DNA of 51,453 nt, taken from Psammoneis japonica. Lineage: Eukaryota. The translations under genes were made by a program, and so were the position numbers. This document shows, piece after piece, positions 6,661-51,063 of this stretch. The stretch spans positions 607,899 to 659,351 of the forward strand of contig QPGO01000035.1 in assembly GCA_008632985.1 (NCBI GenBank), written 5' to 3'. Within the stretch, counting starts at the first letter, position 1; every line of letters begins with the position of its first letter. Below the pieces are notes generated by a model that searched no databases, had not been told where the DNA came from, and saw nothing but the letters and a program-made list of their open reading frames with translations.

Positions 6661-6679
6661 GGGACTGAACAACAAACGA

Positions 6680-15950: not shown

Positions 15951-15990
15951 TCCCTGCCCATTAAGTGCAAAAGTTACAAGGTCCTCAAAC

Positions 15991-25631: not shown

Positions 25632-25875
25632 ATCCACCTCGTTTTGTCTGATCTCACATCAGAGTGTGAGTGCATTGTCCATGCATCCCATTGCTTTCCA
25701 AGCATGTCAACCTTCCGTTGATTGGCTGCTCTGCATCTGCCTTCTTTTCTCTCAATTGTGCTGAATCCGGACAATCTCCACAAGCCGGTTAATCTGGATC
25801 ACTGCCCTGATCCACCTCGTTTCATCTGATTTCAACCTCAGAACATGAGCACATTGTCAATGCAGCCCAACATTG
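25632..25875. repeat. Internal diverged direct repeat (~60-bp core, 178-bp spacing) in the Ngaro 5' region
   Basis: GATCCACCTCGTTT..TCTGAT...CATTGTC.ATGCA.CCCA at 25632 and 25810. Confidence 0.75.
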
Positions 25876-28830: not shown

Positions 28831-29139
28831 TCTGATGAACTGGGGCACTTGGTTTTTGATGTGCATCAGTGACTTGCATGTTTTGACATTAGTTTTCTTT
28901 GACCTTGCACCACCAGCAAAGATCATGGACTCCAGAGCTGCACACACAGGTGGCACACCCAATGCCTTTTCTTCTGCCAGTGCTGATGCATTCATGGAGG
29001 ATGACATCATCCTTCCTCTTGCGGTTGGCAATCTCAAAAATGCTTCTGCATCCCTGGGGCTGGCAGCTCAGGATGTCACTGATGCAGCTCCAGTTTTTGT
29101 CTGACAACGTTGAGGAGTTTTACCCTGTTTTACCCCCAA

Positions 29140-31680: not shown

Positions 31681-32863
31681 ACTGCTCTGCTCTCATCTGT
31701 TCTCCGAACTGCTGCCAGCCCCTGTGGAGACCCTGCAGTGCTTGGGACAGCTTGCACAAGATGCACCCACCATTTCAAATTCACCAAGGATGTGAAGTGG
31801 GATGTGGATGACCCGGAAATGCTTGTGGAGAAGCTCTTGGAGCATCATTGCCAACTGCAACTCACCATGCATGCCATGCATGTTGCAGAAGGGACTTCCA
31901 TTTTTTGTGAGAAACAAAAAGCCAACACCACATTTGCCTGTGCAAAGGATGTCATGTCATTCATCAAGTTGTTTGGACGCTGCCGCGACTGTTGGCATGA
32001 CCACTCTGTGGACACTGAGTTGAGAAAGTTGTTCCAAGACACAAAGAAGGAAATCCAGTGATGCAATGAAGCTCCTGAGTGTCGCAAAGGTTTTGGCTCC
32101 AAGATGCTCCAAGAATCTAAGGAGCAGGCTAACACTGTCTCTGCTTCCAACCCGGATGGGCTGCTCTGCGCCATTTCTGATTGGCACCAAGTGCGCCCAT
32201 TCTGTGGTGCCTGTCTCCAAGAGTGGGCACAGACAAAGAGCAGATCTGACCCAGCTCGTCCGGCAATTGATTCCCAAGGTGGCACCCAAACTTGGCATCT
32301 CAATGACATTGAGGTCAAAACTGACAACTGCCAATGCACCTGAGGGGCACCGACATCTTGTCAGTGCCCGTCTCTTTGATCTCCAAGATGTGGGTCATGT
32401 GGCTCACCCAAAAAAATGAGGACAACGGTGAGGAGAAACTTTTTACTCTGAACCTCCAGCAAGACAGGCTTGACTTGGTCAAACCAACACACCATGTCAT
32501 TGAGTGGTTTGTCTGCATCCATGGCACAAAGATGATGCCACTGCCCCTCTGTCCATTTACAAAAAAGCAGGTGACAAGGCAAAGCTGATCACCTCTGTGG
32601 AAATTGAGGATGACGTGCATGAAGTTGCCTCAAAAATCTGTCGCCTGGACCCTGTTGAGGATGCAGAAGCACTTTTGCACTGGTCAGCCCACTCTCTCCA
32701 TGTTGGAGATTGTGTGTTGCTCCACCAAATGAACCTTGGTGCACAGTCTGTCCAATGGCTGTTGCAATGGAGGATTTGTGGTTTGCCTCAGGAACTCTGC
32801 TCTCTTGGCAGACCACCAGTGCAGAGCTCTTGACTGCTCTGCAGCCATGCCCCACCTCTTGTA
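31680..32863 (+). pseudogene. Ngaro tyrosine recombinase remnant
   Basis: CGACLQEWAQ (catalytic Arg box, degenerate), WLTQKNEDNGE, and WSAHSLHVGDCVLLH...QWLLQWR (H-S-L-R-x-G box with R->H; LLRWxS box). Confidence 0.85.
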
Positions 32864-33216
32864 AGAAATTTTGAAAATTTCAAAATTTCTGTGACACCTC
32901 ATTTTGTGTGTGCCACATGTTGCATGTTTCATGTTCCTTTTTTCAAATTCGAACAAGTGCAATCTGGTTTGATTGTGTTGGTTTTCTCATGCTGTCACTT
33001 GCATCGGTTTTCACTGTGCCAATTTCTTTGAATGTTTTTTCTCCTGCACAGCACATTTCCCCATTTGGGGCCCATGCAATCCTGACCGTCCACCCTCTTG
33101 AGGGTGCTGACCTTCAGTTTAAATCCTGTTTTTTCTTTTTTTCTGGCTGGCCATGTTGCCTCTGATGACATGGGTGCATGCGCTCCACTTCATGCAATGC
33201 GTCAGCAGCCACATGG

Positions 33217-33336
33217 TCTGTTCACACAGTGTTGGGGAACAAAATGGATGGAACTAGATCTGCAGATTTGCTCCCTGTTTTCCAGCTGCTGTCCAGCAGC
33301 ACCACACGAATGCACATGCTCCACACATTGGACACA
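33217..33336 (+). repeat. Split direct repeat B1
   Basis: TCTGTTCAC.CAGTGTTGGGGAACAAAATGGA...CAGCAGCACCACACGAATG...GGACACA; matches 33689-33809. Confidence 0.9.
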
Positions 33337-33438
33337 TTCATGCGTTGATTGTTGCATCCATTTGGCGGCTTGCGCGCTGTGTCATGTCATCGGGGTTGCA
33401 GCTGAGCCAAGGCAGTGGCAAGGAATCTGCAATTCTTG

Positions 33439-33670
33439 GAGCCAAGACGGTGGGCCCAGCACAAGGAGAGGACACCTTTTGGGCGGCTGAGCTCTTGGAG
33501 GAGTCACTGCGCGACAGCAGCACCCTGCAGAAGGCAGACAGATGGACAACGATGAGAGGCCGCGGGCGGGCCACGCGCCCCAGTTTCCCTCATTGTTTTT
33601 GGCGGACTGCCAGCAACGATGGGATCAGTTGCATCCACCCGATGCGGTGTGGGCCGACAACGCTGAAAAT
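33439..33670 (+). repeat. Split direct repeat A2
   Basis: Direct copy of 25078-25297. Confidence 0.9.
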
Positions 33671-33688
33671 TCCCACCCAACCCAGACC

Positions 33689-33809
33689 TCTGTTCACTCA
33701 GTGTTGGGGAACAAAATGGACCGAACTGGATCTGTGGATTTGTTCCCTGTTTTCTAGCTGCTGTCTCAGCAGCACCACACGAATGTGTGTGCTCCATGCA
33801 CTGGACACA
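33689..33809 (+). repeat. Split direct repeat B2
   Basis: Direct copy of 33217-33336. Confidence 0.9.
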
Positions 33810-34109
33810 CAACACCGGCTGTCCAGCAGTTCCTCCCAGCCAGACAGAAGAAGAAGAGAAAAGGAAAAGGAAGGAAAAAATGAACATTGATGAAGGTTTG
33901 AAAGGGTGCGCTGCAGCACCGCAGTGCGTGCAGCAGTGAAGACGGACGTAGACAGGTGCAGACGCGCTGCGTCCTGATGCGTCAGGCACGTGGAATTTGG
34001 TGCGAAGTGTCGTGCGTTTGCGTGCGCAGAAGGATGTGGATCGCCAACGGCTGGAATAAAGCAGCACACCGCACAGCAGTCAGTGCAGCTCTGTCATAAC
34101 GGCGCTAGA

Positions 34110-35582
34110 ATGGCGGAGGACAACATCGTTGCGTCTGGCAAAGCAGAGGATGTAGCAGCTCCGGAAGTCATGGCAGAACTCACGGGCGCCGAAGGCGTGG
34201 CGGCAGCTGCCATGACTGCACTTGGCGCCGAGGGAAGTGCCGAGGGTGTGTCCGTCGAGTCCGAACGCGCAAGGATGTTGGAGAAGCCGGCGCAGCCCCA
34301 AACTGAAAAGAGGGAGAAAGCCATGCCGCCAGAGCCAACCTTTCAAATTTGTGGTTGGAATGAAGCACAGCAGCTGGGTTGCACCGCCGAGCAGCTCCCC
34401 AAGGCCGGTTGCAAGATCGAGTTGGTGGGTGATCAGGCCACCTTTGTGAAACCGGAGGTCCTGCCTTTTTGCAGCGGCAAAAGCGAGGAGGCAGCCAAGC
34501 CCGCGGCCAAAGTGGTCGTGAAAGCAACGGCGGAAGAGGAAGAAGAAGGAAAGCAATTTCCGGACCCCAACGATCCGTCATTCGACTTGTGGGACTGGGT
34601 GTTGCGGCACAAAAAATCCGACAATTTCCAGGAGTCCATGTGCCTGATGAAGGATGCGCCGAATGATCCCGACCTCTGGTTCCCCGCGCTGGGAGAACTG
34701 GGGTGCATCAGGAGCGACCCTGAAGCCGTCGCGAATGCTCACGGCGAACACTGCAAGTGGGTGTGGAGGGGCCGCACGGAAGTCGGCGAGAGGGGCATCC
34801 CAGACTCGACGCCGAAGAGCAACAAAGTGTTCAAGACCGCCGTCGAGGCTTTCGAAGCGGGGTGGTCGCTCGCACTGGTCTACCTCGTGAAGAGAGTAAG
34901 TGCAGAAGTGTGCACATTTGGATGAGGCGCCATGTCACTTCAACCTGCATTGTTTTGCCTCAAAAAGTCCGTTCGCTGTGCAGGCCCCAAGGAGGTGGAG
35001 GTGGGCGAGCCACGTGTGTCGCAACGGAGGGGCGCAGGCATTGGTTTTTTTGCTTTGCGCCAGTTCCAGAAAGGCAGCACGGTTGGAATCTACGTGGGCC
35101 CCAGGGTGCCCGGTACGACGAGGAGCCATTCGTGGCATGACCACGACAGCAAGTTTGGAGAAGACCACAGCGTGTGCTGCTCCACCATCCGTGACAGCGA
35201 GGGCCACTGCGTCACAGTGGAGCCAAAACCGCTTGATTTTAGCGGTCCAGGGAACAAGAATTCCCATCCACTCTACCTCGGAATGCACTGCGTGAACGAT
35301 GCCACCGAGTCGTTCAAGGACAAGAAGAAGATCAAGGCAAGCCAACACGCAGACAACAACTGCGAGTTCTGCAACGACGGGTGCTTGGTGGTCACGAAGC
35401 GAATCATGCCCGGGGAGGAATTTCTCTCCAGACACAACTTGGACGAATCGGAGAAGAAGAAGAAGAAGAGGAAGGCGACGTCGGGTGCCATGAATCGGAA
35501 GAAGAAATCGTGTCTACTCCCCAAGTTGGGGGGGAGAAGCTCTGCGTCTGGCAAAACGTTTGCCGTGCAGTGTGCTCTGTAA
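34110..35582 (+). CDS. SET-domain protein (two exons 34110-34895 and 34968-35582), TpA-mutated and probably inactivated
   Basis: Removing a 72-nt GTAAGT...AAAG intron (34896-34967) joins YLVKR|SVR in frame. SET motifs: GAGIGFFALRQFQKGSTVGIYVG, YLGMHCVND, NCEF.NDG.LVVTKRIMPGEEFLSRHN, where the terminal Tyr position is now His. A basic NLS-like tail follows. Confidence 0.8.
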
Positions 35583-35680
35583 ATTAGTGGCACAGTGTGT
35601 TGGTGTTTTTCAGCGAAACTGTGGCATTAGTTGGAAAGGCGCAGCCCCAGTTGTGGTTCGAAAAATGGGAACGAGGAAGA

Positions 35681-35808
35681 ACAGAAAGTCAGCAAATTTG
35701 CGCAAATCTGGCAAATTGGCAGGCACCTGCACAGTCGCCTGAGTACAGAAAGTCAGCAAATTTACGCAAATTTAGCAAGTTATTTTTGCACTGTCACAGT
35801 CGCCTGAG
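35681..35808. repeat. Two tandem ~64-bp copies between the convergent SET and TET/JBP-like genes
   Basis: ACAGAAAGTCAGCAAATTT(G/A)CGCAAAT...CACAGTCGCCTGAG at 35681 and 35745. Confidence 0.9.
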
Positions 35809-37227
35809 AATGGTCTCTTCCTCTAGAGAAAGGGGGATTGAATTGTTGTTCTTGCCCACCACAGCACTCTTCAGGTGGAGAGACACGCAGAAGAACTCGT
35901 CGTTTGAGTTTGTCCTGCTGGAGATGCAGTGGCACTTGGTGGGGTTAAAAATGATGACATCACCAAGCCGGAGTGCAACGGAGATGCCTTCGGCAGGGAA
36001 GCAGAAGTGTGCCACAATCCCGTCATTCATGGTGTGGCTGCCGGACGGAGAGACTCCCACCACGGTGACCACTGACAGGAAGAAGTCCTGGTCCCTGTGG
36101 GCGTTGAGGAAGACATTGCGCCCAGCCGCCAGAGAGGAGAAAATGCCATCTGACTGCACCAGGGATTTCCAGTTGTGAAACTTTTTGACACGAGCGATGC
36201 CCTTGAGGATGGCACAGTCCACGTGCTCATTGACAAGGTGCTCCATGCGTGAAAGAAGTCTGGCGAGGTGGTGAGTGTGTTGGTCGGCCATGCCAGGCTG
36301 CTTGCAAGAAATTCGAGCGTCTCTCGTGGCAGCCAGGCCAATCATGGAACACTTGCTCCTGTCCGTCTCCATGAAGGTAACGCGTTGTTTGCTGCGCACG
36401 GTGGACTGGGTGGTGCAGCATTCTAGTGCTTCGAGCGCTCGGCACTGAGCAACTAGTTCTGCTGGGTTGGGGGAGCTGAACACCACAGCAGAACGCGGCA
36501 GCAGGGTGCAGGTGTTGTCGCAGCGGCAACCGTCCAAGCCAAAGAAAGGCTTCAGATCGAGCACAGGGTCACAGACGACCAGAGGAGCCAATTCGGCAAA
36601 GTCAATGTCAGCAAGACAAGGTGGTGCAGGCTGAGTGTAGTCGCCGTTGTAAACTAGAGTGCGGTCAGCTACACAGTGCATGGAGAGACTCTCAGTGGCG
36701 CACGGTGCAAGTGGAACGAGGTGAGCAATCTTGGATGTTTTCCCACTGGCGCGGCTGCGGATTCGCCTGCGGCTGCGGTGGGCCTTGCGAAGTGGCGGTT
36801 GAGCCCTCAACACGTTCTCGTGCATCCTGGTGTGCATTGACGATGCGGTGTTCGCAGAGAACGTGTGTGCGAACTTGCTGGCAAATGTTCCGCTGCTTGA
36901 CACTGTCACTGTCGTCTCAACAGTGCCCAAAGCAGAACTCTGTCGACAGGGACCGGCGGACTCCAGGGGAGTGGGGTCAAAACCCAATCGAGAGATGTGT
37001 CTGCTTTCCATTGCCTCAAGAGCACCCAAAGCAAAACTCTGTTGACAGGGACCAGCGGACTCCAGGGGAGTGGGGTCGAAACCCAATCGCGAGAAGTGTT
37101 TGCTTGTTGTCGGGCTGCGAGCTGCACGTCCCAAACCCCCACACTGTCGAGACCGGCTGCAACTCAATCGCGACAAGTGCTTGTCGTTGGTGGGACGACG
37201 CAGCGAGGCACGAGGTGGTTGCGACAT
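35794..37227 (-). CDS. 2-oxoglutarate/Fe(II) dioxygenase, TET/JBP-like; TpA-mutated
   Basis: C-terminal DSBH pattern: IFSSLAAGRNVFLNAHRDQDF (HxD at 36091-36099), HFCFPAEGISVALRLGDVIIFNPTKCHCISSR (distal His at 35929-35931), CVSLHLKS. The start codon is uncertain. Confidence 0.75.
   Translation of the reverse strand: MSQPPRASLRRPTNDKHLSRLSCSRSRQCGGLGRAARSPTTSKHFSRLGFDPTPLESAGPCQQSFALGALEAMESRHISRLGFDPTPLESAGPCRQSSALGTVETTVTVSSSGTFASKFAHTFSANTASSMHTRMHENVLRAQPPLRKAHRSRRRIRSRASGKTSKIAHLVPLAPCATESLSMHCVADRTLVYNGDYTQPAPPCLADIDFAELAPLVVCDPVLDLKPFFGLDGCRCDNTCTLLPRSAVVFSSPNPAELVAQCRALEALECCTTQSTVRSKQRVTFMETDRSKCSMIGLAATRDARISCKQPGMADQHTHHLARLLSRMEHLVNEHVDCAILKGIARVKKFHNWKSLVQSDGIFSSLAAGRNVFLNAHRDQDFFLSVVTVVGVSPSGSHTMNDGIVAHFCFPAEGISVALRLGDVIIFNPTKCHCISSRTNSNDEFFCVSLHLKSAVVGKNNNSIPLSLEEETILRRL
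36926..37183. repeat. 99-bp (33-aa) tandem duplication plus a partial third copy in the dioxygenase N-terminus
   Basis: SRLGFDPTPLESAGPC(Q/R)QS occurs twice (units at 36926 and 37025); KHLSRL is a partial copy. Confidence 0.9.
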
Positions 37228-37674
37228 GGTGTGTCTCAATTTGAAATGTGTTTCAAAACATGATGACGGAAGTGTTGTCGCATTGTTTTTGTCTCCGCGG
37301 AGGGAGGATCATCCCACGGCAATCTCAGCGCGAGTTCTCGCGTAGAAGTGCGTCACGTGCCGTGCCAGCTCGTGCATTTGAATTACACGGACACACAAGT
37401 GCGGCAACGATGAGAAGCAGGCCGAGATTCAAAACAAATTTTGTCGCCCAAAGGCGTCTTGTCATTTCAACGTGTCTGCGTGTCTGTTTAAAATGACTTC
37501 ACGCGTTGCTCCATGCGCAGGTAGAGGTGGCACGCCGCATTTGAAAATTTCGCGCGCACAGAGGGCGCGACGGCAATTTTACGCATTCTGCACACGTCAC
37601 AGTTTGGCTTGGAAACGCGACATCTGGTCGAACCCGCTGCAAGCAAGGTTGATGTTGCCACAAGGTTGGGTGCG

Positions 37675-38544
37675 ATGAACCATCGTCACAGAAGTGTTGG
37701 GGAGTTTTGTCTTCAAACGGCTCCAGACTCCGCGTTCCAGAGCAGGCATGTCTCCGGAGACGGAAGCGGATCTTCACACGGCGGTGAAGTTGGCTTCGCT
37801 TTGAGCAGCGAAGTGTTTTTGAACGAATGCCTTCTTGGCGTGAATCACACCTGCGACACATCTGTCGACATGGGCGGGGGAGTTGCCGGACCCAGCATCG
37901 GGCTCAAGTTACTTCGTCGCCGTTGCACCATGGTGAGCATCAAGGCCGACCACGATCGTCACCAAGAGGCTGTACGTTGGGCTCATTGTGCTGGCCTTTG
38001 CTCGAACGGCGGGTTAGAGTTGATCAACAAGTCATTCTTGGACGAGAGGCTGGCTCCTTTGTGGAAAAAGAAAGGACTCAAGGTGTTCTTCAACAACTGC
38101 AACTCCCGCATGGTCGACGACAAGAACACACAGCAGAAGGCAGAGGCGATGCTTTCGAAGTTGTGTCGTGCTGGGACCGTGGTGGTGGCGCTAGATCCGC
38201 TGTTCACGTCGCACGCGGGAGAGTGGATGTGCGAGTCCTTCACGGCGGATTGCCATGATGGCGACTTTTTGTGGCACAGCGGAGACGTGAAACATCTCGT
38301 CTTCCACAAGTGCACCAAGAAAGAGGAGACTTCTCAGTCAACCAGCCAGCACATGCGACGTCCCACTCCGACACACTTGGAACGGAAGTGTTTGCCCGTC
38401 GCGAAACAGCCAATTTTACTTAAGAACTCAACTGAACTGTTTTTTTACTGTCGCTGCACTGGACGTCACACGCTAGTTACTCTACTCAATTCGCCATTGC
38501 TTCACGGTGACGACAAGTTGTCGTCGGAGATGGTGCACACTTGA
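37675..38544 (+). CDS. Class I SAM-dependent methyltransferase, DOT1 (H3K79 MTase)-like; TpA-mutated
   Basis: Ordered motifs match DOT1's YGE / VDLGSGVG / GxE / GDFL / FVNNF / GxxIVSxxP: SHGGEV, SVDMGGGVAG, VSIKAD, KSFLD, VFFNNCN, AGTVVVALDPLF. The C-terminus may be read-through after stop-codon loss. Confidence 0.65.
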   Translation: MNHRHRSVGEFCLQTAPDSAFQSRHVSGDGSGSSHGGEVGFALSSEVFLNECLLGVNHTCDTSVDMGGGVAGPSIGLKLLRRRCTMVSIKADHDRHQEAVRWAHCAGLCSNGGLELINKSFLDERLAPLWKKKGLKVFFNNCNSRMVDDKNTQQKAEAMLSKLCRAGTVVVALDPLFTSHAGEWMCESFTADCHDGDFLWHSGDVKHLVFHKCTKKEETSQSTSQHMRRPTPTHLERKCLPVAKQPILLKNSTELFFYCRCTGRHTLVTLLNSPLLHGDDKLSSEMVHT

Positions 38545-38630
38545 AGAGACAGAGGAAAGCTGAGTTGCAATCGACACTTAGTTTGCTGAACATTTGCAAA
38601 TTTACACTGTACCGGCAAAAAAAAAACAAC

Positions 38631-39503
38631 TCAGTCTTCGTCGCTGTCCTGAAGCACCAAGTCGTCATCGACGTTCAGGTCAACTTCGCAGTTGAGCTCG
38701 ACATCATCGTTGGCCTCTTCTCCAGCTTCTTCCACCGGAGCTCCAATGAGACGACAGAGTTCCACAGGCAACGACCCCTCGTAGAAGCAACTGTGAAGTG
38801 AGTTCTTGTTTTGGGCACACCAACCGATGTGAAACTGACCACCTTCCTTCTGAAGCTCGGCAAGCGCCGCCTCGTTGCCGATCACTTCGGACCAAACAGC
38901 ATCCTTCATCCAGAAGAAGTCGTCTTCAATGAAGACCTCGGTGTTGTTCTCAGGGTCATCGTTGAGCTGCTTCGCAATGTGCTTCCCGAGGCCGCGCACT
39001 TTAGCATCGGTTGGGACTTCTTCGAGGAAGATGAAGAAGAGATGCACGGCGCAGTTCTTGGCGTTCGTCTGCAACTCGCCTTCGTGAACCCACCTGCCAG
39101 CGCAAGGGTGGAATCCGACTTGAACCACCCACGGAGTCCTGCTGCGAAGGTTGTCAAACAGAACCTTCTCCAACCAAACATTGGCCAAAAGGGGATTCTT
39201 GGCTTGGAGACGAAAAACGACGCCTTTCTTGCGGCCGACAGTGACGGTGGCGCAGCACAGGAGGGCGTCCTCATCGGAATGGCTGCCATCGTCAGAACCG
39301 GCGGATTTGGAAAGCTTGAACCCGTGCTTGGCAAGGCGGTCTTCCGGTTTAAGGTCGTCGTCGGTCAAGCCGTTGGTCTTGCGGGGCGGACTTAGTTTCT
39401 TCAACAGAGCATCAGAAAACTTCGTCTTTGCCTTCTTCTGTTTGGTTTCAGCGACTTTGGCTTTCGCAGCTGGGGAGGTCGTTGTGTTTCTTTTGCGTGC
39501 CAT
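38631..39503 (-). CDS. Hypothetical protein (290 aa; basic N-terminal tail, globular core, acidic C-terminus)
   Basis: Uninterrupted, protein-like frame from MARKRNTT to LQDSDED*. No family recognised. Confidence 0.7.
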   Translation of the reverse strand: MARKRNTTTSPAAKAKVAETKQKKAKTKFSDALLKKLSPPRKTNGLTDDDLKPEDRLAKHGFKLSKSAGSDDGSHSDEDALLCCATVTVGRKKGVVFRLQAKNPLLANVWLEKVLFDNLRSRTPWVVQVGFHPCAGRWVHEGELQTNAKNCAVHLFFIFLEEVPTDAKVRGLGKHIAKQLNDDPENNTEVFIEDDFFWMKDAVWSEVIGNEAALAELQKEGGQFHIGWCAQNKNSLHSCFYEGSLPVELCRLIGAPVEEAGEEANDDVELNCEVDLNVDDDLVLQDSDED

Positions 39504-40046
39504 CAAATCAGTTGGAGAGAAATTGTGGGAACAAAAAGTGCGATCGTTCAGAAGTGCCAAGAAAGACCCAGCAGAGCTGCGTGCATCATGCCAAGGAGAA
39601 CTGGCAACATCAGCAACTAGATCCAAACACGTCGAACTGCAACAAGGCAACCTTCCAGGTGTCAGCACTTGCAAGTGGTGCATGGATTCAATTTGAACAA
39701 AACAGGTGCAAGGATCGGAGCACGCAAAGTCACACTGAGTTCACTGAAAATGCGTAAAATCACATGCAATTCCGTCCATGCTTCGTGTGTGTTTCAGCCG
39801 TCACTGCCGCGCGGCCATCGCGCATGAAATCTAGTCGCCAAACGGTCGACGCCATCGCTGTCACCACTGCACCGGCAGTTAGCTAAGGTGGGCCCATCAC
39901 CCATTTGGAGGATTCGCGCGCACTTTGGAAACACGAATGACGTCAATCGTGTTGCCATTGCCACATGACCAACTCAACTGCCCCGCCACTTGTTAAAGCG
40001 TGATTCTGCGGAATTTACGTAAAGCTGCGCCCACCACCAAGATTGC

Positions 40047-40150
40047 CGAAACAACTTGAACAAGATCCGAATCTTGCCCCATGGAATGTTCAGAGCAGAT
40101 GGTCGAAACAACTTGAACAAGATCCAAATCTCATCCCATGGGATGTTCAA
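40047..40150. repeat. 57-bp tandem duplication
   Basis: CGAAACAACTTGAACAAGATCC.AATCT...CCCATGG.ATGTTCA at 40047 and 40104 (KQLEQDPNLxPWxVQ twice). Confidence 0.9.
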
Positions 40151-40304
40151 CGTCGACGAAACTAAGCAGGACATCGCACGTCTGGCACGAAGAAGGACGT
40201 GGGAGGAACGCACACGTCACTCTTCCGTCGAGGTGAAAGAGGCACACTTTCGTCTCACTTTTTTGTGACAGAACCTTTGTGCAAAGGGAAACGAAAAGCA
40301 TCCA

Positions 40305-40631
40305 NNNNNNNNNNNNNNNNNNNNNNNNNNNNNNNNNNNNNNNNNNNNNNNNNNNNNNNNNNNNNNNNNNNNNNNNNNNNNNNNNNNNNNNNNNNNNNNN
40401 NNNNNNNNNNNNNNNNNNNNNNNNNNNNNNNNNNNNNNNNNNNNNNNNNNNNNNNNNNNNNNNNNNNNNNNNNNNNNNNNNNNNNNNNNNNNNNNNNNNN
40501 NNNNNNNNNNNNNNNNNNNNNNNNNNNNNNNNNNNNNNNNNNNNNNNNNNNNNNNNNNNNNNNNNNNNNNNNNNNNNNNNNNNNNNNNNNNNNNNNNNNN
40601 NNNNNNNNNNNNNNNNNNNNNNNNNNNNNNN
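40305..40631. other. Assembly gap
   Basis: Run of N. Confidence 1.
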
Positions 40632-40960
40632 GCAGCTCTCACAGAGACCTGATCGCACAGGTTGTGAGAACACGACACAATGCTGCGGTGATCGGGTGGC
40701 ACCGACGCAGTTCGTCAAGCAACTGATTGACTCGGCTGCGGTGACTGGACAGCGCCAGTCGCAGTGCTCACAGCGACCTGATTGCACAGGCTGTGAGAAG
40801 ACGACACAGTGCTGCGGTGAACGGATGGCACCGATGCGGTTCGTTGATCAACTGGACAGAACCACTGCGGTGACTGGACGACACCAGTCGCAGTGCTGCA
40901 GGTGGTGAGAAAACACACATCACTGTGGTGATTGGATGGCACCGATCGCAGCTTCATGGT
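40632..40960. repeat. 129-bp tandem repeat array (two full copies plus a partial one) abutting the gap
   Basis: CTCACAG.GACCTGAT.GCACAGG.TGTGAGAA.ACGACACA.TGCTGCGGTGA at 40638 and 40767; partial copy ~40905-40955. Confidence 0.9.
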
Positions 40961-41039
40961 GATCGCACTGAAAAAACAACCATTTTTGCTGAGTGGCTTC
41001 TTGAAATTTGTTGAGTTAAAGTGTCAGCTTAAATTAAAA

Positions 41040-44000
41040 ATGGACGAGGCCAACTCCCGTGTTTGCAACGCAATCAACAGAAAGTTTGAGATGCTTTGTC
41101 TACATGGAGATGGAGAATTTAGACCACACGCATGTTTGGTCTGTGATGTTCTGCTGAAACCTAGAGAAGTTTGCTGCTTGCCGCTCAAAACATTGGAATC
41201 AGCAAGAAACTTGCTCACCCCTTCAGACTGGAACAGCGCATCTGATCGTCTCAAGTCCTGCTGCACTGTAGAGCATGAAGATGCTGATTGGATCAAAGAC
41301 CTGCCACTTTCTCCCCACGCCCAATGCGCAGTGCAGGAAGACAGACGATGCGTCGACGGATTCACTTGCTGCAGCGAATGTCAAAGAAGCCTGGGAAGAG
41401 CCGTCATGCCAATGTGCGCAACAGCGAACAACTGCTGTTTCGGTGCCCCGCCGCATGAACTGTTGTCTCTAACCGAAGCCAGAATTGGCAATGCTCACAC
41501 CAGTGAAAACATGCGGACACTGCTTCAGCCACCTTGGCGGCAAACAGAAGAAGCTTCAGGGAAGTCTGACGTGCTACAAAGTCAAGATACAAAGCATCGT
41601 AAGAACTGTTGTGCACTTCGACGCACTGAATTTACATCAGAATGTGATTGCACTGATGACTGGAAAGATGACTCCGGAGCAAAGACAACTTGCGTGTTCA
41701 AAGAACAGAATTAGGACGCACTGCATGCCAAGGGCGATGGAATGGCTGTTGCACCACAACCAAGAGTGGGTGCACCAACAGACAAATCTAGACGAAGTCA
41801 GGCGTAATCTGCGGAATCCCGCACTTGTCGACAGCACCAGCAAAGAAGAAGGAGAAAATGCGAGTGTTGAGACCTCAGAGTCATTTCACATTTGCTTTCC
41901 TGATGGAACCATGTCTCCTGCGACCGGTGGTCAGCGCAACCTGGACTGCTTCAAAGATCTTGCACGAAGCTGCTGCCAACGGATTTGATTTAGAGGTGCA
42001 AGCACAGTTGTCTAAAGAATCTGCGAGTGATTTCAAAGGCAACAACTTCATTGACGCGTGTCTGCTGCAGTTTCCTTTTGGCAGAGGAGGAATCAATGAG
42101 ACGAGAATGAAGAAAGACGGAAGTCTTGCAGACAGCACCAACCTTGCACACTGTGCCGACCACCACGGATTTCCCAGCCTCACTTCCACGAGCAGCTCTT
42201 CGTGTTAACATGCTGCAACTTGACAATGAAGCAAAGGATGCTGCAGAGCGCAGGGTGGAAAGTCAGGGACAAGAATCAGGCTGCACAGTTTGCAAACGAA
42301 CTGACAGTGGACGATGTGGACAGAGCTGTTTGTGATCGCAACTTGGGCGAGAGAAGAGATTGTGGACTCGGGCACCACTTTTTGCGTGCACTCGACGTTG
42401 CATCTGCGTCTCTGCCACACAGNNNNNNNNNNNNNNNNNNNNNNNNNNNNNNNNNNNNNNNNNNNNNNNNNNNNNNNNNNNNNNNNNNNNNNNNNNNNNN
42501 NNNNNNNNNNNNNNNNNNNNNNNNNNNNNNNNNNNNNNNNNNNNNNNNNNNNNNNNNNNNNNNNNNNNNNNNNNNNNNNNNNNNNNNNNNNNNNNNNNNN
42601 NNNNNNNNNNNNNNNNNNNNNNNNNNNNNNNNNNNNNNNNNNNNNNNNNNNNNNNNNNNNNNNNNNNNNNNNNNNNNNNNNNNNNNNNNNNNNNNNNNNN
42701 NNNNNNNNNNNNNNNNNNNNNNNNNNNNNNNNNNNNNNNNNNNNNNNNNNNNNNNNNNNNNNNNNNNNNNNNNNNNNNNNNNNNNNNNNNNNNNNNNNNN
42801 NNNNNNNNNNNNNNNNNNNNNNNNNNNNNNNNNNNNNNNNNNNNNNNNNNNNNNNNNNNNNNNNNNNNNNNNNNNNNNNNNNNNNNNNNNNNNNNNNCTC
42901 ACAACAGTTCAGAAGATCTGCAGCACGGAATTAATCTGCAGCGAGGACTTCAGCACTAACGCGTTGCGTGAAGCATTCGATCATGACTGCACAGTGCCAA
43001 AAATGTGTCGCACCTCTCCAAAAGCAGCAGACGACCAACAGCTAAGAAACCTGAGGCACAAAGACGGCCAGCAGTCGAAGAACGGAATGTTTGCTTGTTG
43101 TCGTCACTGCACCAAGTGCTGGACAAACGTCGAGTTTGTAGAAAGCTTTTTACAGTCACGGCACCGTGCACCTGGCCTGACTCGCCATCCAGACAACCAT
43201 GCAAAGCGACCAAAAGCAATGTGTGCACAACACCAGCGAAGTGGTCCGCAAGGGACAACAGAGGCATGTGTGCCGGACGCAGCTTACAACCATCACATGC
43301 ACGTTACGAAGTCGTGTTTTCCCAAATGCGCAGAGTTGCGTAAAATGCGCAAAAAAACCCCACACGAGGAACTGGACGTGCTGTCAAGGAAACGGAAACG
43401 AGAGGAGCTCAAACTGGGTGACTGCCATCACAGGCAACCAGCTGCTTCGTGTCCAAATAATTTGGCAAGGAACGCAGATGACACTCAGATAAAGTGGTTC
43501 AGCTGGGATGGAACTTTTGCGTATCGGCACGTGAAGGAAGTTGTTCCGAAGAGGAGAAAGTGTGATGCTTTTCAAAACGTGTCGTGCCCTGCAATGAGCA
43601 GATCAAAACTGACATGCAACACAAACATTGCTTTGTTGATGCCTGGACCGTCTGCTCAATGCACGATTGAGCACATCCTAAAAGACACCCAGAAAGATGA
43701 CACTGCATCGTACGATGAAGTGCTTCGAACTACAAACAGGACAGCGACGGAATTGCGGAAACACGCATCTGATGCATCGGAAGCAATCAGATGTCTCACA
43801 TGGGGTGCTCACTCGCACAACAAGACGAACATCATTGGACCACCACTTGCGTCTTACACAACAAGGAATGGAAGCCATTTCATCGAATCTCATTTGACCG
43901 CATGGTGCCCCTTGAAAGACATTGTCAGCACACTAGAAAGAGACGAAGTGTCTGCGACTGTAGCCCATTTTGGCGACACACCGTTCTTCCAATGCCAGGC

Positions 44001-46687
44001 CTTGCACCACCTGTGTCGTCCAACAGCACTGGAGAATCTCAGTCCATTTGCGTTTTTCAGTGAATGCGAAGTTCTTCGCAACACAAGGAAAAACGAACAC
44101 GGCATGATGATGTTCGACAACAGAGCGCACAGGCACCCGTCTTGCAATTCAACGAAGAATGAGTTTCTTCAAGGTGTCAGACAGCGACAGCAACCGCGAT
44201 TGTCAAAAGCACTTCAGTGTGATTTTCCTGATGCAGCCAAGTTTGGCAGTTGCCTTGTGGATCCGCAGCAACCAACAACACTGGACAAAGAATTGTGCTG
44301 CAAGTTGGCATTGGCCTTGTTTGCGCCTTGCAGAACAATGACGGAACTCAAACCAATGACCCACACATGCCTGCGTGAATTCCAACTCTCCGCAGCAGCC
44401 GGTGTCATTGCAGAGGAAAACTTGAACTTCTTGCAGAACCTGCAGGATGCCAAGTCCAACTGCCTTCGTCTCAAAAGTGCATCTGACGATCTGCAAAGAA
44501 AGACGGAGCAATTTAGACCTGCTGACGTTGCGTTTGACTGTTGCGAAAGTGACGAGGAAGAAGGTCTTTCAGGCGCCGTTCAGGGTCAACTGCTGGATGC
44601 ACTCTTGGAAGAAATGGCAGAGCAGCCAGAAGACGATGACATTGGGTTGAGCGACCAAGCAGTTGTTCCTGCGCATTTGAGCGGCAAACGTGCAAGACAG
44701 AAAGGTTCACACATGGGTGGTTGCAAATGCTTGGCAGACATGCACACTGACCCACCAAACGAGGAAAGCCAGGTCAATGAACGACAACTTTTTGAGAATC
44801 TAGAGGGCGGCGATGACACCGACGAGGAAGACCAGAATGAAGGAGTGCAACAACACATCCACAGCAGACCACTGTCAAGAGACGACATTGTTCGAGTGAC
44901 ACTGACTAGAACGCAAAGAACAAGAAGGTCGTTTGAGGACATGACAGGTTTGGAAGAACACGTCGATGTACGTCAAGCAAACGGATCTGCAGCAAGTGTC
45001 GTAGACTGGGCTAGGAAAGCAAGACTGGACAGGCAACAGCAGCGTGCCTTTGAAATTCTAGCAGGAACCTTTGTGCTCACTTGCTGCCAAGACGCTCTTC
45101 AAGACGAGACGTCACGCAATGGACTCAACAGGAGAAATGGCAGACACGAATTCGCAACAAACCTTCGCCGATTGAAGAAACTCGTGGAAGTGCAAAGACG
45201 CAGAACGTTGCAACTTGTGTGTTTTTTACATGGTGCAGGTGGAAGTGGCAAATCAACCACAATGGACCTCGTCGTGGAATGCGGAAGAGAGCATTGCTCG
45301 CTTGTTGAGCAGCCGTTCACAACAAGCACAATCAGAGTGACTGCACTGACCGGAGTGGCTGCGACTGTTCTCAAAGGGGACACAATCCACCGAGTTGCAT
45401 GCCTCATGAGAAGAAAGCAAACAACCGAAGAGCAAATTGAAGCATGGTCAGACACGAGACTTTTGGTGGCAGACGAGATTTCTTTTGCAAGCAAGAGAGA
45501 ACTAGAAAAACTCCATGAGAATTTGACAGTGTTGAAGAGCGAATTGAGCAAGCCGTGCGGTGGCATGAACATTGTTTTCGCAGGTGACCTCAGGCAACTA
45601 GAACCAGTCGGAAAAGGAGTGAAACCACTGTGCAAAGATGCGTGTCCCGAGTTTCACGAGTGGATCAACTGCCACATGGAACTTCGTGGTGTGCACAGGT
45701 TTAAAGACGATCCATCATGGGGAAAACTGCTCAAGAGATTCCGCACTGGTGAGATTGCAGTTGACGATGTGGAGCACATCAACGAACGAGCAGTTCAGAA
45801 TGAAGATGATCTGCCCAGTGACCTCCGCTGTGCTGCGCACGCAAATAAGGACAGAGATGCAATTGACACTGGCCCATTCGAAAAAAGAGCAAAAACACTG
45901 CATAGAAGAGATGGAGACGTCCTTGACTCAATGTTGATTTTCAGTGACGACTTGCAGGTGCAGAATGGCACGAGACTCTGCCAACCATTTCCGGTTTGCA
46001 ACAGCTTCTGGAACAACTGTGGTGAAGGAGACGTTGTCATGCAATCAGGAAGAATGGATCCAGTCTTACGAATTTACAGAAGATGCAGAGTCATGACACC
46101 TTTCAACGAAAATGCAGCAAACGGTCAAGCAAACGGAACGCAAGCCACTGTTGACAAGGTCGTTCTCAAACCAGGACAGGAACCAAGACTGGTGACTTTA
46201 GACAACAACATTGGCATTCCTGCTGCTTGCCAGTCAGGTAGACCACGTTGCATTGGAACACTGCAACAAAAGCATCGACCCCGCGAAGTTTTTAGTTGAG
46301 CCAAAAACAAATGCTTTCAGGGCTTGCATCGCCAAGCCCAGCCCAATTTTAGAAGAAGGCGACAAACAAAGGCACACTTTCCAACTGAAGGCAACCCAGC
46401 TGCCGTTTGTCATCAACAATGCCACTGCAGGGCACAAACTGCAAGGGAGTGGAGTCCCGCAGTTGTTTGTACACTCTTGGAGCTACACTCAGAATTGGGT
46501 GCATGTTGTGCTCTCCAGAGTAAAGACCAGAGAAGGGCTGTTCATGCGAAAGCCACTGAGCAAGGACCTGCGAAAATGCAAGGTCCCAGAAGGCTACGAA
46601 GCCTTGATGAGACTCATGAAGGAGAGAAGCGCCACGCATTTTTCTCAGCAACAGCACGCAGAAACAATGTGTGCGCAAACAGATTAG
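41040..46687 (+). mobile_element. Helitron Rep/PIF1-helicase polyprotein, frameshifted and hypermutated
   Basis: N-terminal CxxC motifs and MPMCATANN..GAPPHELLSLTEA; LLQFPFGRGG; Rep-region HHMHVTKSCF, CNTNI, QCTIEHILK. PIF1 motifs: GAGGSGKST, ALTGVAATVLKGDTIH, ADEISF, GGMNIVFAGDLRQLEPV, HRFKDD, ANGT, TAGHKLQG, VVLSRV. Frameshifts near 41480, 41960, 42170 and 46230. Confidence 0.92.
42423..42897. other. Assembly gap (probably hides the Rep HUH motif)
   Basis: Run of N inside the Rep region. Confidence 1.
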
Positions 46688-46881
46688 GATGCTCAACCAC
46701 TGTGCAACTGTTTGGCGACCCCAACCGTAAAAATGCGGAAATTTCGTAAAATAAAATGTTTCGATTAGATCAGCACATTGCGCAGAAATCTACACATGCG
46801 TCACACAACGTCGAATGGATTTTAACCAACAAACCAAGAAACGCGAACGCAACCGTCACAGAAAAGCAGCAATGAGAAAAC

Positions 46882-47281
46882 ATGGATTTGCAACAACAAA
46901 CAAAGAAGGCAGACGAGCCAAAGAAAACTGGTGAGGACAAGAAAAAGGTGCAGACACGTGCGGAACTTCTTCAGTCATTGATGAATGAGGAAGACGAAGA
47001 GGAGATTACCTTGGAAGAAGCAAGAGCGGCGTTTGACCTTGCTTCGGGAAATTTTGATGTCACTTCTGCACTTGTGCAAGACAACACGACAGTGGACAGT
47101 CATCATGTGGAAACAACGGTCGCCCAAGGATGATTCAACCATGGAGGAGCTAAAGGCAGCATGTGCAGCGGCGATTCCACAGCGGTCGGGGAGATTTTTC
47201 ACCGAGGAGGAGATGGCGGAGCAGGAGAAGGAGCAAGCAAAGTCCCTTCAGAAGAAGCATGGCCAGAAAGAATGGAATTGA
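46882..47281 (+). pseudogene. Small acidic ORF fragment(s) downstream of the helicase
   Basis: MDLQQQTKK...TVAQG* followed by MEELKAACAAAIPQRSGRFFTEEE...; TpA-depleted. No family recognised. Confidence 0.4.
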
Positions 47282-47580
47282 GCAAATTGCAAATGACATT
47301 TGGCAAAGACAACCGCATCAATGCGCAAAATGCACACACATGGACTTTCACTTGAGCCGCCGCGGATTGAGTGTGGCCACAATGGAGGACCAACTGTTTG
47401 GCAAAGAAACTGCAACAATGCGTAAATTTCGCACATTTCCACACTCACTTAATCCAACGCAGCTTGCCTTGGACAACATCAACATGCACAACTGGACAAC
47501 ATCAANACAGCCTCATGAAACCTCACAGAAGACAGAATGGTCAGAAGCAAAACAACCAGCACCACGCTCTAACGCATGTT

Positions 47581-47624
47581 GGTCATGTCGCGTGGGTCGC
47601 GCAAAAGTGCGCACCGAAATGACC
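47581..47624. other. GC-rich hairpin, candidate Helitron 3' subterminal hairpin
   Basis: GGTCGCGCA-AAAG-TGCGCACC (47595-47615) is nested in GGTCAT...ATGACC. It sits where TpA depletion stops (TAATTAATT at ~47636). Confidence 0.5.
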
Positions 47625-47894
47625 GTCATGTGTTGTAATTAATTCGAACGCCCGGCGCAAAATGCAGCAAAATGATTGGTGCAGGCAATCGTCATGGCTC
47701 TATTTTCTGACAGTAGCGAGGGCGGCAATCCAAAATCTTTCGGTTTCAGACTTCGATCTAGAGAGTTCCACCTAAAAAAGAGGAGGAACCAATTTGTTTC
47801 CCGCCATATCACGCGCAAGTGGATGATGATTCGCGCGGAGCCTCACATCTCTCCACCCTCGCTCAGCCGCGCAAAGCCAGAAAATCAAACAACC

Positions 47895-48470
47895 ATGGCC
47901 ACTTGCGTTTGTAGTTTGAGCGGCGAGACGGGTTCTTCCGTATCAGGGGTGTTGAAACTTGTACAGTCAAGTGAAGATGCACCCACCACCATTGAAGGCG
48001 AGCTTCGAGGCTTGACACCGGGAAAGCACGGCATTACAGTCAATGTGTACGGCGACCTTTCTCAAGGCGCTACTACATGCGGAGAGATTTTCAACCCATT
48101 TGGTGAGAATTATATTGCGGTCTGTGCGAATCGTGCTTGTCTTCATCATTGTGTCGTAGCTTATGATCCTTTTGTGTTTTGTTTCTGAACAGGCAAATCA
48201 CACGGATCACCACAAGACGATCCGAGCAATCGCATGGTGGGTGATTTGGGAAACATTGACGCTGGATCGGATGGAAAGTGTGCCGTGTCGTTGTCGGATT
48301 CACTCGTGAAATTGTTGGGGCCCCATTCCGTCATTGGAAGGTCGATTGTCGTGTATACTTCTGCGGATGATGGTGGACGTGGCGGCCAACCGTCGTCACT
48401 TACAACCGGCAACACTGGAACACGAGTAGCTGCCGGTGTGATTGGAATTGCCGCAGCTGCGGCGCCATGA
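47895..48470 (+). CDS. Cu/Zn superoxide dismutase-fold protein lacking most metal ligands (exons 47895-48102 and 48193-48470; 161 aa)
   Basis: The 90-nt GTGAGA...AACAG intron restores FNPF-GKSHGSP...RMVGDLGNI. Also GLTPGKHG, LLGPHSVIGRSIVV, TTGNTGTRVAAGVIG. Dinucleotide content is normal. Confidence 0.92.
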
Positions 48471-48599
48471 GGTGGGAGAAACGATTGTTTAAATAAGGAT
48501 CAACATGGTAGACTTGAAAGGGTTTTGTCTGACATTATGGCTACTGTCCTGAAGCAGATTAGAATAAGGAGTACTTTTTAGCGAGTGAGAATGGCCACC

Positions 48600-50960: not shown

Positions 50961-51063
50961 GTTGAAGACTTGCGATCTACGGATCGGCACGAAAAACGAA
51001 AAAATCAAAATCAATATAAACATATATTCAACATCGTAGAAACTTTATGCTGACGAACTTCCC

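Follow-up and report, generated by a model that had tools for sequence, protein, structure and literature searches.

A decayed, high-copy Helitron in Psammoneis japonica with a TET/JBP-like dioxygenase gene and three further compact genes that it probably carried

TET/JBP-encoding Helitrons are known from fungi, where Helitron1 and Helitron2 were described together with other TET-bearing DNA transposons, and the role proposed there for the transposon TET is to counter 5mC-based silencing (Kojima 2025, PMC12730594). In oomycetes, a proto-Helentron of Phytophthora infestans encodes a SET-domain protein, with a SET match at E 3.4e-24 (Thomas et al. 2014, PMC4067079), and SET is also found on HarbingerS/MuDR elements of Phytophthora, as cited in PMC12730594. 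More recently, a TpA to TpG/CpA hypermutation of foreign DNA was reported in Bigelowiella natans (Mettrop et al. 2026, bioRxiv 10.64898/2026.01.13.699255).

Here we describe a locus of Psammoneis japonica that touches on all three of these systems. The window, meaning the whole stretch of 51,453 nucleotides that was analysed, contains four alternating-strand ORFs (34.1-39.7 kb), called the cassette in what follows, and then a Helitron RepHel gene (41.0-46.7 kb), which is the arrangement that the original prediction had proposed (Table 1). The dinucleotide profile of the block (CpG o/e 0.63-1.09 and TpA o/e 0.07-0.30 over ~33.7-47.5 kb) is uniformly TpA-poor and CpG-rich and unlike either flank, given that the repeats upstream have CpG o/e of 0.1-0.4 and TpA o/e of 0.0-0.1, and the host genes of the same window have CpG o/e of ~0.9 and TpA o/e of 0.4-0.7; the compositional state claimed to be shared by cassette and Helitron is thus a real one. 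Depth was taken as the summed contig depth of one public run (X1), which is not a copy number: it amounts to 49-96 (mean ~64) in the single-copy flank (48342-50999), 1825-4131 (mean ~3330) in the cassette (34335-40337), and 3440-5191 (mean ~4340, excluding the bin with the N run) in the Helitron part, that is, ~50-70x the single-copy flank for the block. This depth steps up within 33001-34334, is still high in the tail at 47774, steps down within 47675-48341, and runs without a break across 39.7-41 kb, the interval singled out in advance as the place where a separate Helitron would begin. Uniform composition and high depth together support the view, also predicted, that the block behaves as a single repeated unit of ~14 kb. 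The contig pieces of X1 that match it number 4020, at 80-100% identity, and differ from copy to copy mostly by transitions; the multiple copies expected of a Helitron are therefore seen as depth, and not as dispersed insertions. Cassette depth is ~23% below that of the Helitron part, from which some family members may lack the cassette. One low-depth contig connects 47723 to 37481, an arrangement without explanation. Near the depth and composition boundaries, neither terminal repeats nor a convincing candidate for the Helitron termini (5'-TC, 3' hairpin with CTRR) was found, so we can only infer, and not show, that the cassette with all four of its genes lies within the termini.

Table 1. Features of the repeated block, in positions of the window
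Feature	Position	Strand	Evidence or remark
Whole repeated block	33700..47850 (approximate limits)	.	TpA-poor, CpG-rich, high-copy
SET-like gene	34110..35582	+	Pfam SET E 0.006, sub-threshold
SET-like gene, N-terminal part	34110-34895	+	no known domain
Probable SET domain	~35037-35423	+	Pfam SET
TET/JBP-like 2OG/Fe(II) dioxygenase gene	35794..37230	-	homologues, AF2 model, structural matches
Small conserved protein (predicted as class I MTase / DOT1-like)	37675..38544	+	one homologue
Acidic ORF (350 aa from ATG, acidic C-terminus)	38631..39683	-	length vs shuffles, periodicity
Spacer, cassette to RepHel	39741..40931 (~1.2 kb)	.	short tandem repeats, N run 40305-40631
Helitron RepHel pseudogene	41034..46687	+	Pfam, PDB PIF1 matches, L012 colinearity
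DUF6570 in RepHel	~41482-41800	+	Pfam E 1.3e-4
PIF1 helicase in RepHel	~45217-45696	+	Pfam E 1.5e-14
3' tail of block	46688..47850	+	small ORFs of no known family; ends just upstream of Cu/Zn SOD gene

The proposed reading of the downstream gene as a Helitron RepHel is supported. Besides its Pfam domains, its helicase matches PIF1 structures in the PDB at E 3.9e-9, and by tblastn it is colinear over aa 37-1857 (E 1.6e-112) with the intact metagenomic RepHel of locus L012, a protein of 1885 aa with DUF6570 (4.5e-22), Helitron_like_N (2.2e-13), and PIF1 (1.7e-18). The Rep (Helitron_like_N) region of the window gene lies mostly under the N run 42423-42897, where its HUH domain is hidden, and the Helitron_like_N of L012 sits at the matching place. 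The gene is damaged by five in-frame stops at 41989-42099 and by frame changes near 41489 and 46200, and other copies among the X1 contigs have +2 and +4 nt at 41960-42163.

The TET-Helitron linkage recurs beyond this genome. Relatives of the TET-like gene lie beside an intact Helitron RepHel in 8 of the 80 TET-bearing metagenome loci surveyed, beside Plavaka-like transposases in 31, and beside MULE-like transposases in 4. These eight Helitron-linked loci make up only ~4 distinct families, four of the loci being ~99% identical, and five (L006, L011, L012, L015, and L021) show the arrangement of the window, with the TET gene head-to-head upstream of RepHel. A quick tree places the window TET inside a 25-row clade (SH-aLRT 100) containing all eight Helitron-linked TETs, and the row nearest to it is the Helitron-linked L001. 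Relatives of the SET-like, "MTase", and acidic ORFs were found at none of the 80 loci, the eight Helitron-linked ones included, and the membership of these three genes in the element must therefore be judged from this genome alone.

The "2OG-Fe dioxygenase" of the original prediction is supported as TET/JBP-like by its modelled fold and its metal-binding residues. With phmmer, 735 homologues were obtained at E<=1e-3 (best 4.2e-67), and the AF2 model built on a 50-row alignment reached pLDDT 91.4 and pTM 0.90. The best Foldseek matches of this model are CcTet (4.7e-8), CMD1, TET2, and NgTET1 (E 5e-8 to 2e-6), and in VIA, ranks 1-16 are all TET-family (Z 18.1-13.7), with TET2 at 18.1 (263 residues aligned, rmsd 4.0), CMD1 at 15.9, CcTet at 14.6, and NgTET1 at 14.1, followed by ALKBH1, FTO, and AlkB at Z <=11.3. 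The predicted protein would share with human TET2, Chlamydomonas CMD1, Coprinopsis CcTet, and Naegleria NgTET1 the double-stranded beta-helix core with TET-type elaborations (219-265 residues, Z 14-18) and also the HxD...H residues, but at 10-12% identity and without a Cys-rich or CXXC domain. Among the 50 aligned sequences, H218 and H274 of this iron triad are invariant and D220 near-invariant, all three being kept in the window copy, and D222 is invariant as well; two near-invariant Tyr of the family have become Cys and His in the window. The catalytic domain occupies ~35794-36750, and the N-terminal half is of low complexity, with a 99-nt tandem repeat at 36916-37105. Pfam Tet_JBP (PF12851) did not match the window ORF and, among the 50 aligned sequences (counting that of the window), gave two weak matches (best E 0.0023), and a profile search of PDB sequences with the family gave no TET match. 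Tet_JBP clusters do occur among the Atlas neighbours of the homologue P0005, and the nearest Atlas clusters are recorded as eukaryotic, most commonly Bacillariophyta.

The SET call is a weak one: Pfam SET (PF00856) matches over model positions 1-100 of 105, at E 0.006 and with 17.4 bits against a cut-off of 22.4, in a copy whose Tyr depletion lowers profile scores. The ORF has no PDB sequence match, its GC3 is 0.70-0.73, and its in-frame TGA (34923-34925) falls within a candidate 72-nt GT..AG intron (34896-34967); we suggest its SET identity tentatively. The third gene has a sole homologue, P0151 (244 aa, 53% identity, E 1.5e-70), whose alignment stops at ~38406; a Gly-rich stretch is kept between the two, the window shows His or Cys at 6 of the 9 positions where P0151 has Tyr, and a profile search with this family gave no member besides P0151. 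No Pfam family at all, DOT1 and the Methyltransf families included, matched the window ORF at E<=0.1 or the intact P0151 at E<=1, and a PDB sequence search with both gave no match, so the DOT1-like or class I methyltransferase label is not supported so far. The acidic ORF has no match in Pfam, the PDB, viral contigs, or the 80 TET-bearing loci. Overlapping antisense ORFs of 150-250 aa are numerous in the cassette.

The ORFs of the block contain 0.3-0.9% Tyr and 4-5% Cys, with His likewise in excess, vs. 2.3% Tyr and 1.7% Cys in the host PKS, and Tyr to His or Cys replacements are seen both against P0151 and against the TET consensus. In repeats, CpA and TpG o/e are 1.3-2.0 and TpA o/e is 0.0-0.3, vs. 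0.4-0.7 in host genes; this TpA loss with CpA/TpG excess, confined to repeats, is what TpA hypermutation leaves, its direction here being unpolarised by a DNA outgroup. With its low Tyr and with the stops and frameshifts of RepHel, the window copy is a dead, pseudogenised relic, and the "anti-silencing toolkit" proposed for it would therefore belong to its ancestral copies.

We consider that the block (~33.7-47.8 kb) is probably a degenerate, TpA-hypermutated member of an autonomous, high-copy Helitron family carrying the TET-like gene and the three compact genes. A less likely reading, which still has to be taken seriously, is that two repeats adjoin here, with the cassette (all of it, or SET-like, "MTase", and acidic genes) being a unit of its own, mobile or segmentally duplicated, that abuts a TET-bearing or plain Helitron, or that the composite multiplied through a secondary amplification instead of Helitron transposition. 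Cassette and RepHel do differ in GC3 (0.66-0.73 vs. 0.49) and in GC (0.55 for the block vs. 0.49), which suggests a different origin, but their TpA/CpG state is identical throughout. A repeat-rich 1.2-kb spacer separates them and the cassette has the lower depth mentioned above, yet depth is similar and unbroken over 39.7-41 kb. The missing termini, the contig joining 47723 to 37481, and the lack of the accessory genes at the eight Helitron-linked environmental loci would also fit two repeats, whereas independent environmental Helitrons have TET head-to-head upstream of RepHel, and the window TET groups with theirs.

It is improbable that the N-terminal part of the SET-like gene and the acidic ORF are non-genes whose frames were opened by TAA/TAG loss through TpA mutation, even though neither has a homologue or family and many antisense ORFs overlap the cassette. 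Over both strands of 33900-39800 there are 32 TAA, 36 TAG, and 183 TGA, the first two each being 5-6x rarer than TGA, so that spurious ORFs are long in this region, and in 200 dinucleotide shuffles the longest ORF averaged 232 aa and reached at most 445 aa. However, the observed ORFs, at 504, 369, 339, and 315 aa, are all longer than the 95th percentiles of the shuffles (303, 242, 217, and 201), ranks 2-4 also exceed the maxima over all shuffles (275, 238, and 231), and both suspected ORFs are longer than every rank-matched shuffle, the acidic ORF surpassing the second-longest ORF of each one. Periodicity is coding-like in all four ORFs (GC3 0.66-0.73, GC2 0.37-0.46), and GC3, GC2, and purine-at-position-1 periodicity in the two suspected ORFs agree with the validated TET and "MTase" genes.

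A reading of the four ORFs as domesticated chromatin genes of the host that merely lie beside a Helitron insertion is very unlikely, since, compact, intron-poor, periodic, and CpG-undepleted like host genes as they are, they stand at ~50x single-copy depth, their TpA o/e (0.08-0.26) and Tyr (0.3-0.9%) are unlike those of the host PKS and SOD, and near-invariant Tyr are gone from TET and "MTase".

If the block is one Helitron, as we prefer, its family would bear a TET/JBP dioxygenase gene upstream of RepHel, like related environmental Helitrons, with a probable SET-domain protein, the small conserved protein, and the acidic protein as extra cargo in this lineage. In intact ancestors, the TET-like enzyme could have oxidised 5-methylcytosine in the DNA of the element itself and would thereby have opposed methylation-based silencing, in the way proposed for the fungal transposon-borne TET, and chromatin may have been the target of the accessory genes. 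The host would have inactivated the family by a TpA-targeted T/A to C/G hypermutation that turned Tyr codons into His or Cys codons and erased TAA/TAG stops; long ORFs would persist in this dead copy precisely because these stops were removed.

The combination had been put forward as new on a Helitron. Given that fungal Helitrons with TET (PMC12730594) and a proto-Helentron with SET (PMC4067079) have already been published, the carriage of either one is not new, and only the combination looks undescribed; in the literature we found no description of a Helitron combining TET, SET, and further genes in a non-fungal protist. Like the fungal elements, as described in PMC12730594, ours would be an autonomous Helitron with a TET/JBP-like dioxygenase gene beside RepHel, from a dioxygenase family also found with Plavaka-type transposases (31 of the 80 loci here). 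It differs from them in not being caught by Pfam Tet_JBP, in its nearest Atlas clusters, which are not fungal, in its probable cargo of three further genes, and in an inactivation signature of TpA to CpA/TpG instead of fungal RIP. With the P. infestans proto-Helentron, as presented in PMC4067079, it would share a rolling-circle element with Rep/Helicase, a probable SET gene, and hypothetical ORFs, but its SET match is far weaker (E 0.006 vs. 3.4e-24), it has a TET-like gene, and no endonuclease domain was seen in it. The Results of the B. natans preprint (10.64898/2026.01.13.699255) deal with viral insertions and RT/DDE-type CDS, and no mention of Helitrons was found there; that system and the window have in common a TpA depletion with CpA and TpG excess only in repeats or foreign DNA, and copies that differ mainly by transitions.

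The reading best supported for the repeated block between about 33.7 and 47.8 kb is that it belongs to a Helitron family which was once autonomous and which carries, beside a TET-like gene, accessory genes specific to its lineage. Its four long cassette ORFs, at 34.1-39.7 kb, alternate in strand and are followed by the Helitron transposase gene, RepHel (see the table). Stop codons on both strands of 33900-39800 amount to 32 TAA, 36 TAG and 183 TGA, and in dinucleotide-preserving shuffles (n = 200) the longest ORF averages 232 aa. The longest ORFs observed, of 504, 369, 339 and 315 aa, exceed the shuffle 95th percentiles of 303, 242, 217 and 201, and those ranked second to fourth also exceed the maxima across all 200 shuffles. 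Coding periodicity was found in all four cassette ORFs (GC3 0.66-0.73, GC2 0.37-0.46, purine-rich first positions), and because of this periodicity, together with lengths above the shuffles, we consider the four frames to be real or once-real genes.

Positions of the features discussed (window coordinates, except for the F-box ORFs, which are in the coordinates of their loci)
Feature	Position	Strand	Remarks
SET-like ORF	34110-35582	+	open frame
TET/JBP-like dioxygenase ORF (predicted)	35794-37230	-	open frame
Tandem repeat in N-terminal half of TET-like protein	36916-37105	-	33 aa, 99-nt period, 89% identical
'MT' ORF	37675-38544	+	open frame
Unknown ORF	38631-39683	-	open frame
Spacer between cassette and RepHel			1.2 kb; short tandem repeats and N run 40305-40631
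RepHel reading frame	~41034-46687	+	long frame after spacer
Host polyketide synthase (PKS) ORF	16530-20363	-	1277 aa; type III PKS (Chal_sti_synt_N/C) with C-terminal AMP-binding adenylation domain
Cu/Zn superoxide dismutase (SOD) gene	47895-48188, 48101-48192		starts just past block
Direct repeats	25066-25279 / 33427-33647		8.36 kb apart, 81-89% identical
RVT_2 match	3993-5054		weak
F-box ORF, L012	10067-11248	-
F-box ORF, L006	5741-6814
F-box ORF, L011	6554-7627
F-box ORF, L015	4852-5925

The dioxygenase gave no match in Pfam, by phmmer against PDB sequences or in a word-index homology search. An exhaustive phmmer search returned 735 proteins at E<=1e-3 and 435 at E<=1e-10, the best at 4.2e-67 with 44% identity. 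In an alignment of 50 rows, made of the window domain and 49 of the 150 listed phmmer matches, H218, D222 and H274 are invariant and D220 is near-invariant, giving an HxD...H arrangement; two of the 50 rows (window sequence counted) touch Pfam Tet_JBP, at best with E 0.0023, and the alignment profile found one spurious low-complexity match in the PDB and nothing else. AF2 with this alignment reached a pLDDT of 91.4 and a pTM of 0.90, against a pLDDT of 32 from the single sequence. The best Foldseek matches in the PDB were CcTet, CMD1, TET2 and NgTET1 (E 4.7e-8 to about 2e-6), and after structural re-alignment (VIA) ranks 1-16 were all TET-family (TET2 with Z 18.1, 263 aligned and rmsd 4.0; CMD1 15.9; CcTet 14.6; NgTET1 14.1), followed after a gap by ALKBH1, FTO and AlkB at <=11.3. 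The Atlas neighbours of one homologue, P0005, were eukaryotic clusters and Tet_JBP clusters, with Bacillariophyta the commonest among the few having a record. The original prediction of a TET/JBP-like product is therefore supported by the modelled fold and the putative metal-binding residues, and not by the Pfam profile. Copies in X1, a public sequencing run, vary around the tandem repeat of this protein, with joints at 37142/37227 and 37659/37012.

The downstream frame had been taken for a Helitron gene, and this was upheld by a PIF1 match and by colinearity with an intact relative. Pfam PIF1 was found at E 1.5e-14, with DUF6570 below threshold (E 1.3e-4), and the match to structures of PIF1 helicases has E 3.9e-9. 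The metagenome locus L012 bears an intact 1885-aa ORF with DUF6570, Helitron_like_N and PIF1, whose residues 37-1857 are colinear with window 41034-46567 (E 1.6e-112). The N run at 42423-42897 corresponds exactly to L012 residues 505-666 and covers most of the Rep/HUH domain; HUH and two-Tyr motifs proposed downstream of this run were rejected, since the colinearity puts the Rep domain upstream, under the run. In the window copy the frame is broken by five in-frame stops at 41989-42099 and shifts near 41489 and 46200; at 41960-42163, +2 and +4 nt are seen in some other copies in X1. Judged by its sequence, the frame is a Helitron RepHel pseudogene.

Is the TET-like gene a part of this Helitron? 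A metagenome scan with a 12-row TET alignment yielded 243 relatives, from which 80 loci were kept, and their neighbours were classed by tblastn with 16 neighbour proteins (E<=1e-5) and by Pfam. Among these 80 loci, many of them only 1-4 kb long, a Helitron RepHel lies beside the TET-like gene in eight (L001, L002, L004, L006, L011, L012, L015, L021), a MULE-like transposase in four (L029, L064, L065, L075), four unnamed protein families in 20 and no detected partner in 17, while a Plavaka-like transposase accounts for 31 (L022, L026-L028, L035-L047, L050-L057, L060-L063, L071-L074, L080), counting L022, which also bears one unnamed family. In the aquatic metagenome contigs the TET-like gene and its Plavaka or MULE partner are usually convergent and a few tens of bases apart. 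The eight Helitron-linked loci come down to about four families of elements, since L006, L011, L012 and L015 share about 99% identity. In these four and in L021 the TET gene stands head-to-head upstream of RepHel, the same as in the window, and in L001 it is downstream on the same strand. A quick IQ-TREE run on the 80 loci plus the window, with all rows kept and the careful search unfinished, put the window TET in a 25-row clade (SH-aLRT 100) holding all eight Helitron-linked TETs; the row closest to the window TET is one of these eight, L001, with 42% identity, and the window branch is long. Mainly because the linkage recurs, in 8/80 loci, and because depth and composition are continuous across the block, we take the TET gene to belong to the Helitron, in agreement with the original prediction. 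The L012-type loci also have an F-box ORF just past TET (Pfam F-box E 8.7e-5 to 2.5e-4), which could be further host-interfering cargo.

The depth evidence comes from X1, a set of Logan contigs of one sample, perhaps the one from which the window derives, whose pieces were matched at >=80% identity over 31.0-51.0 kb (n = 4020: 1147 at >=99%, 1283 at 95-99%, 1196 at 90-95% and 394 below 90%). The right flank, which is single-copy, has a summed depth of 49-96, and the stretch at 31-33 kb one of 209-257; depth climbs within 33001-34334, runs at 1825-4131 over the cassette bins (mean about 3330) and 3440-5191 over the Helitron bins (mean about 4340, N-run bin excluded), and drops within 47675-48341. 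The cassette is thus about 23% below the Helitron part, in a measure that is not copy number and supports only high repetition and a similar abundance of both halves. The whole block is highly repeated, with its two halves similarly abundant. Copy differences are mostly transitions, at 151-183 places per transition type vs 14-24 per transversion type. The rival reading, two adjacent units, finds some room in GC3, which is 0.66-0.73 in the cassette genes vs 0.49 in RepHel and 0.51 in the host PKS: a common GC3 fits one shared origin of the cassette, distinct from that of RepHel, and the gap could reflect captured genes or favour two units. A break in X1 summed depth was sought at 39.7-41 kb, between the halves, and none was found.

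At the block edges we found no convincing 3' hairpin with CTRR and no terminal repeat, and a candidate terminal repeat shared by both edges, inverted or direct, was rejected, since it amounted to chance matches of 10 nt only. One X1 contig joins 47723, in the 3' tail, to 37481, between TET and 'MT', with one extra base. It was rejected as a head-to-tail Helitron junction, having no TC or CTRR ends on either side and a depth of 32, below the single-copy value of about 55, and may stem from a rearranged or a nested copy or from a chimeric assembly. A 472-bp tandem duplication (33217-33336 and 33689-33809) occupies the left edge, the same step recurring in one X1 contig. The direct repeats spaced by 8.36 kb could be the LTRs of an element that has been heavily mutated and ends at this edge. 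On the other side, a 90-nt stretch of the SOD gene with GT..AG ends is missing from one contig of a second run, X2, which confirms this intron and makes X2 probably a cDNA run. Over the cassette, X2 gave a single contig of 360 nt (88% identity to 34200-34507), which is too little to indicate expression.

As to the accessory genes, a SET domain is probably present in the first ORF. The Pfam SET match supports this part of the original prediction in covering nearly the whole model (positions 1-100 of 105), and falls short of it in score (17.4 bits vs a cut-off of 22.4, E 0.006). The sole in-frame TGA sits inside a candidate GT..AG intron of 72 nt, the removal of which preserves the frame. Phmmer against PDB sequences returned nothing relevant for this ORF, and Pfam at E<=1 nothing meaningful for its N-terminal part. 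The 'MT' ORF, previously called a class I, DOT1-like methyltransferase, has one relative, the 244-aa P0151 (53% identity, E 1.5e-70, normal Tyr content), which was also the sole return of a profile search; neither protein matched a Pfam family or a PDB sequence. On this conservation, the 'MT' ORF is a member of a real protein family. A Gly-rich stretch common to both is compatible with a SAM-binding loop, and serves as a lead only. The unknown ORF had no match in Pfam (E<=1), PDB sequences, viral contigs or the 80 TET loci. The SET, 'MT' and unknown genes were found in none of these loci and in no viral contigs, and no meaningful Pfam match at E<=1 came up for the ORFs of the block tail or for several ORFs beside TET in the loci.

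The TpA-poor, CpG-rich state that had been ascribed to the block was borne out, with its coordinates, by dinucleotide odds ratios: from ~33.7 to ~47.5 kb CpG o/e is 0.63-1.09 and TpA o/e 0.07-0.30, against 0.1-0.4 and 0.0-0.1 in the upstream repeats (2-16 kb, 24-33.5 kb), and about 0.9 and 0.4-0.7 in host regions (the PKS/AMP-binding fusion at 16.5-20.4 kb, and beyond 48 kb). Tyr makes up 0.3-0.9% of the block ORFs (1.2% in a short C-terminal RepHel fragment) vs 2.3% of the host PKS, and Cys mostly 4-5% vs 1.7%. Six of the nine Tyr of P0151 are replaced by His or Cys in the 'MT' ORF, as are two near-invariant Tyr of the dioxygenase relatives, which is the expected product of TAY->CAY/TGY changes. 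Every repeat in the window (2000-16000, 24000-33500, 33700-47500) has TpA o/e of 0.0-0.3 and CpA/TpG of 1.3-2.0; CpG is also depleted in the older ones, and not in the Helitron block. This TpA depletion with CpA/TpG excess matches the TpA->CpA/TpG signature reported on foreign DNA in Bigelowiella natans (bioRxiv 10.64898/2026.01.13.699255).

Two host defence footprints are decoupled in the block, with strong TpA hypermutation and no CpG decay. The Helitron family is heavily mutated at TpA with CpG still at about 0.9, and the neighbouring repeats have lost most CpG. Starting from host-gene values (TpA about 0.6, CpG about 0.95), TpA loss in the older repeats comes to about 2.5 log units and CpG loss to about 1.3; for the block, with about 1.3 log units of TpA loss, proportional decay predicts a CpG of about 0.5, and 0.75-0.9 is observed. 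This retention is compatible with an anti-silencing role: a Helitron-borne TET-like enzyme would remove or alter the 5mC of the element and so evade silencing, by analogy with the proposal made for fungal TET+ transposons in PMC12730594. Episodic hypermutation or a young age of the family would explain it equally well. A far broader account holds that a Helitron of a non-fungal marine protist built a counter-silencing module (a TET-like 5mC oxidase plus SET and DOT1-like methyltransferases), that it worked, that the host in the end shut the family down through an orthogonal, TpA-directed adenine-type hypermutation, and that TET-like cargo is common on Helitron, Plavaka and MULE elements of diatom-like plankton. 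The module is held to have worked because CpG o/e is about 0.9 vs 0.1-0.4 in neighbouring repeats at comparable or about two-fold greater TpA decay. We consider this account as a whole unlikely; if true, it would extend the fungal TET-transposon pattern across eukaryotes. For the Helitron family with its TET-like gene, the decoupled footprints make the interplay of methylation-based and mutation-based genome defence testable within one family.

Earlier papers already describe TET/JBP on fungal Helitrons (PMC12730594) and a SET gene carried by a proto-Helentron of Phytophthora (PMC4067079); SET on other oomycete transposons is cited in PMC12730594. As far as the literature searches show, transposon-borne TET/JBP genes are documented in fungi; in full-text searches, which extend to neither Repbase Reports nor subscription journals, we found no description of this gene combination or of non-fungal TET+ Helitrons. 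If the accessory gene identities and element membership are confirmed, the SET-like gene and its companions would give this Helitron the richest "epigenetic cargo" so far reported for any rolling-circle element. The TET-transposon association now extends to a eukaryote outside the fungi and to many contigs from aquatic metagenomes, with partners of Helitron, Plavaka-like and MULE-like type, and its recurrence with several transposon types suggests that transposons use it as a general strategy against silencing through cytosine methylation. The Plavaka- and MULE-linked TET-like loci look like the fungal pattern of "heterogeneous TET+ transposons", here outside fungi.
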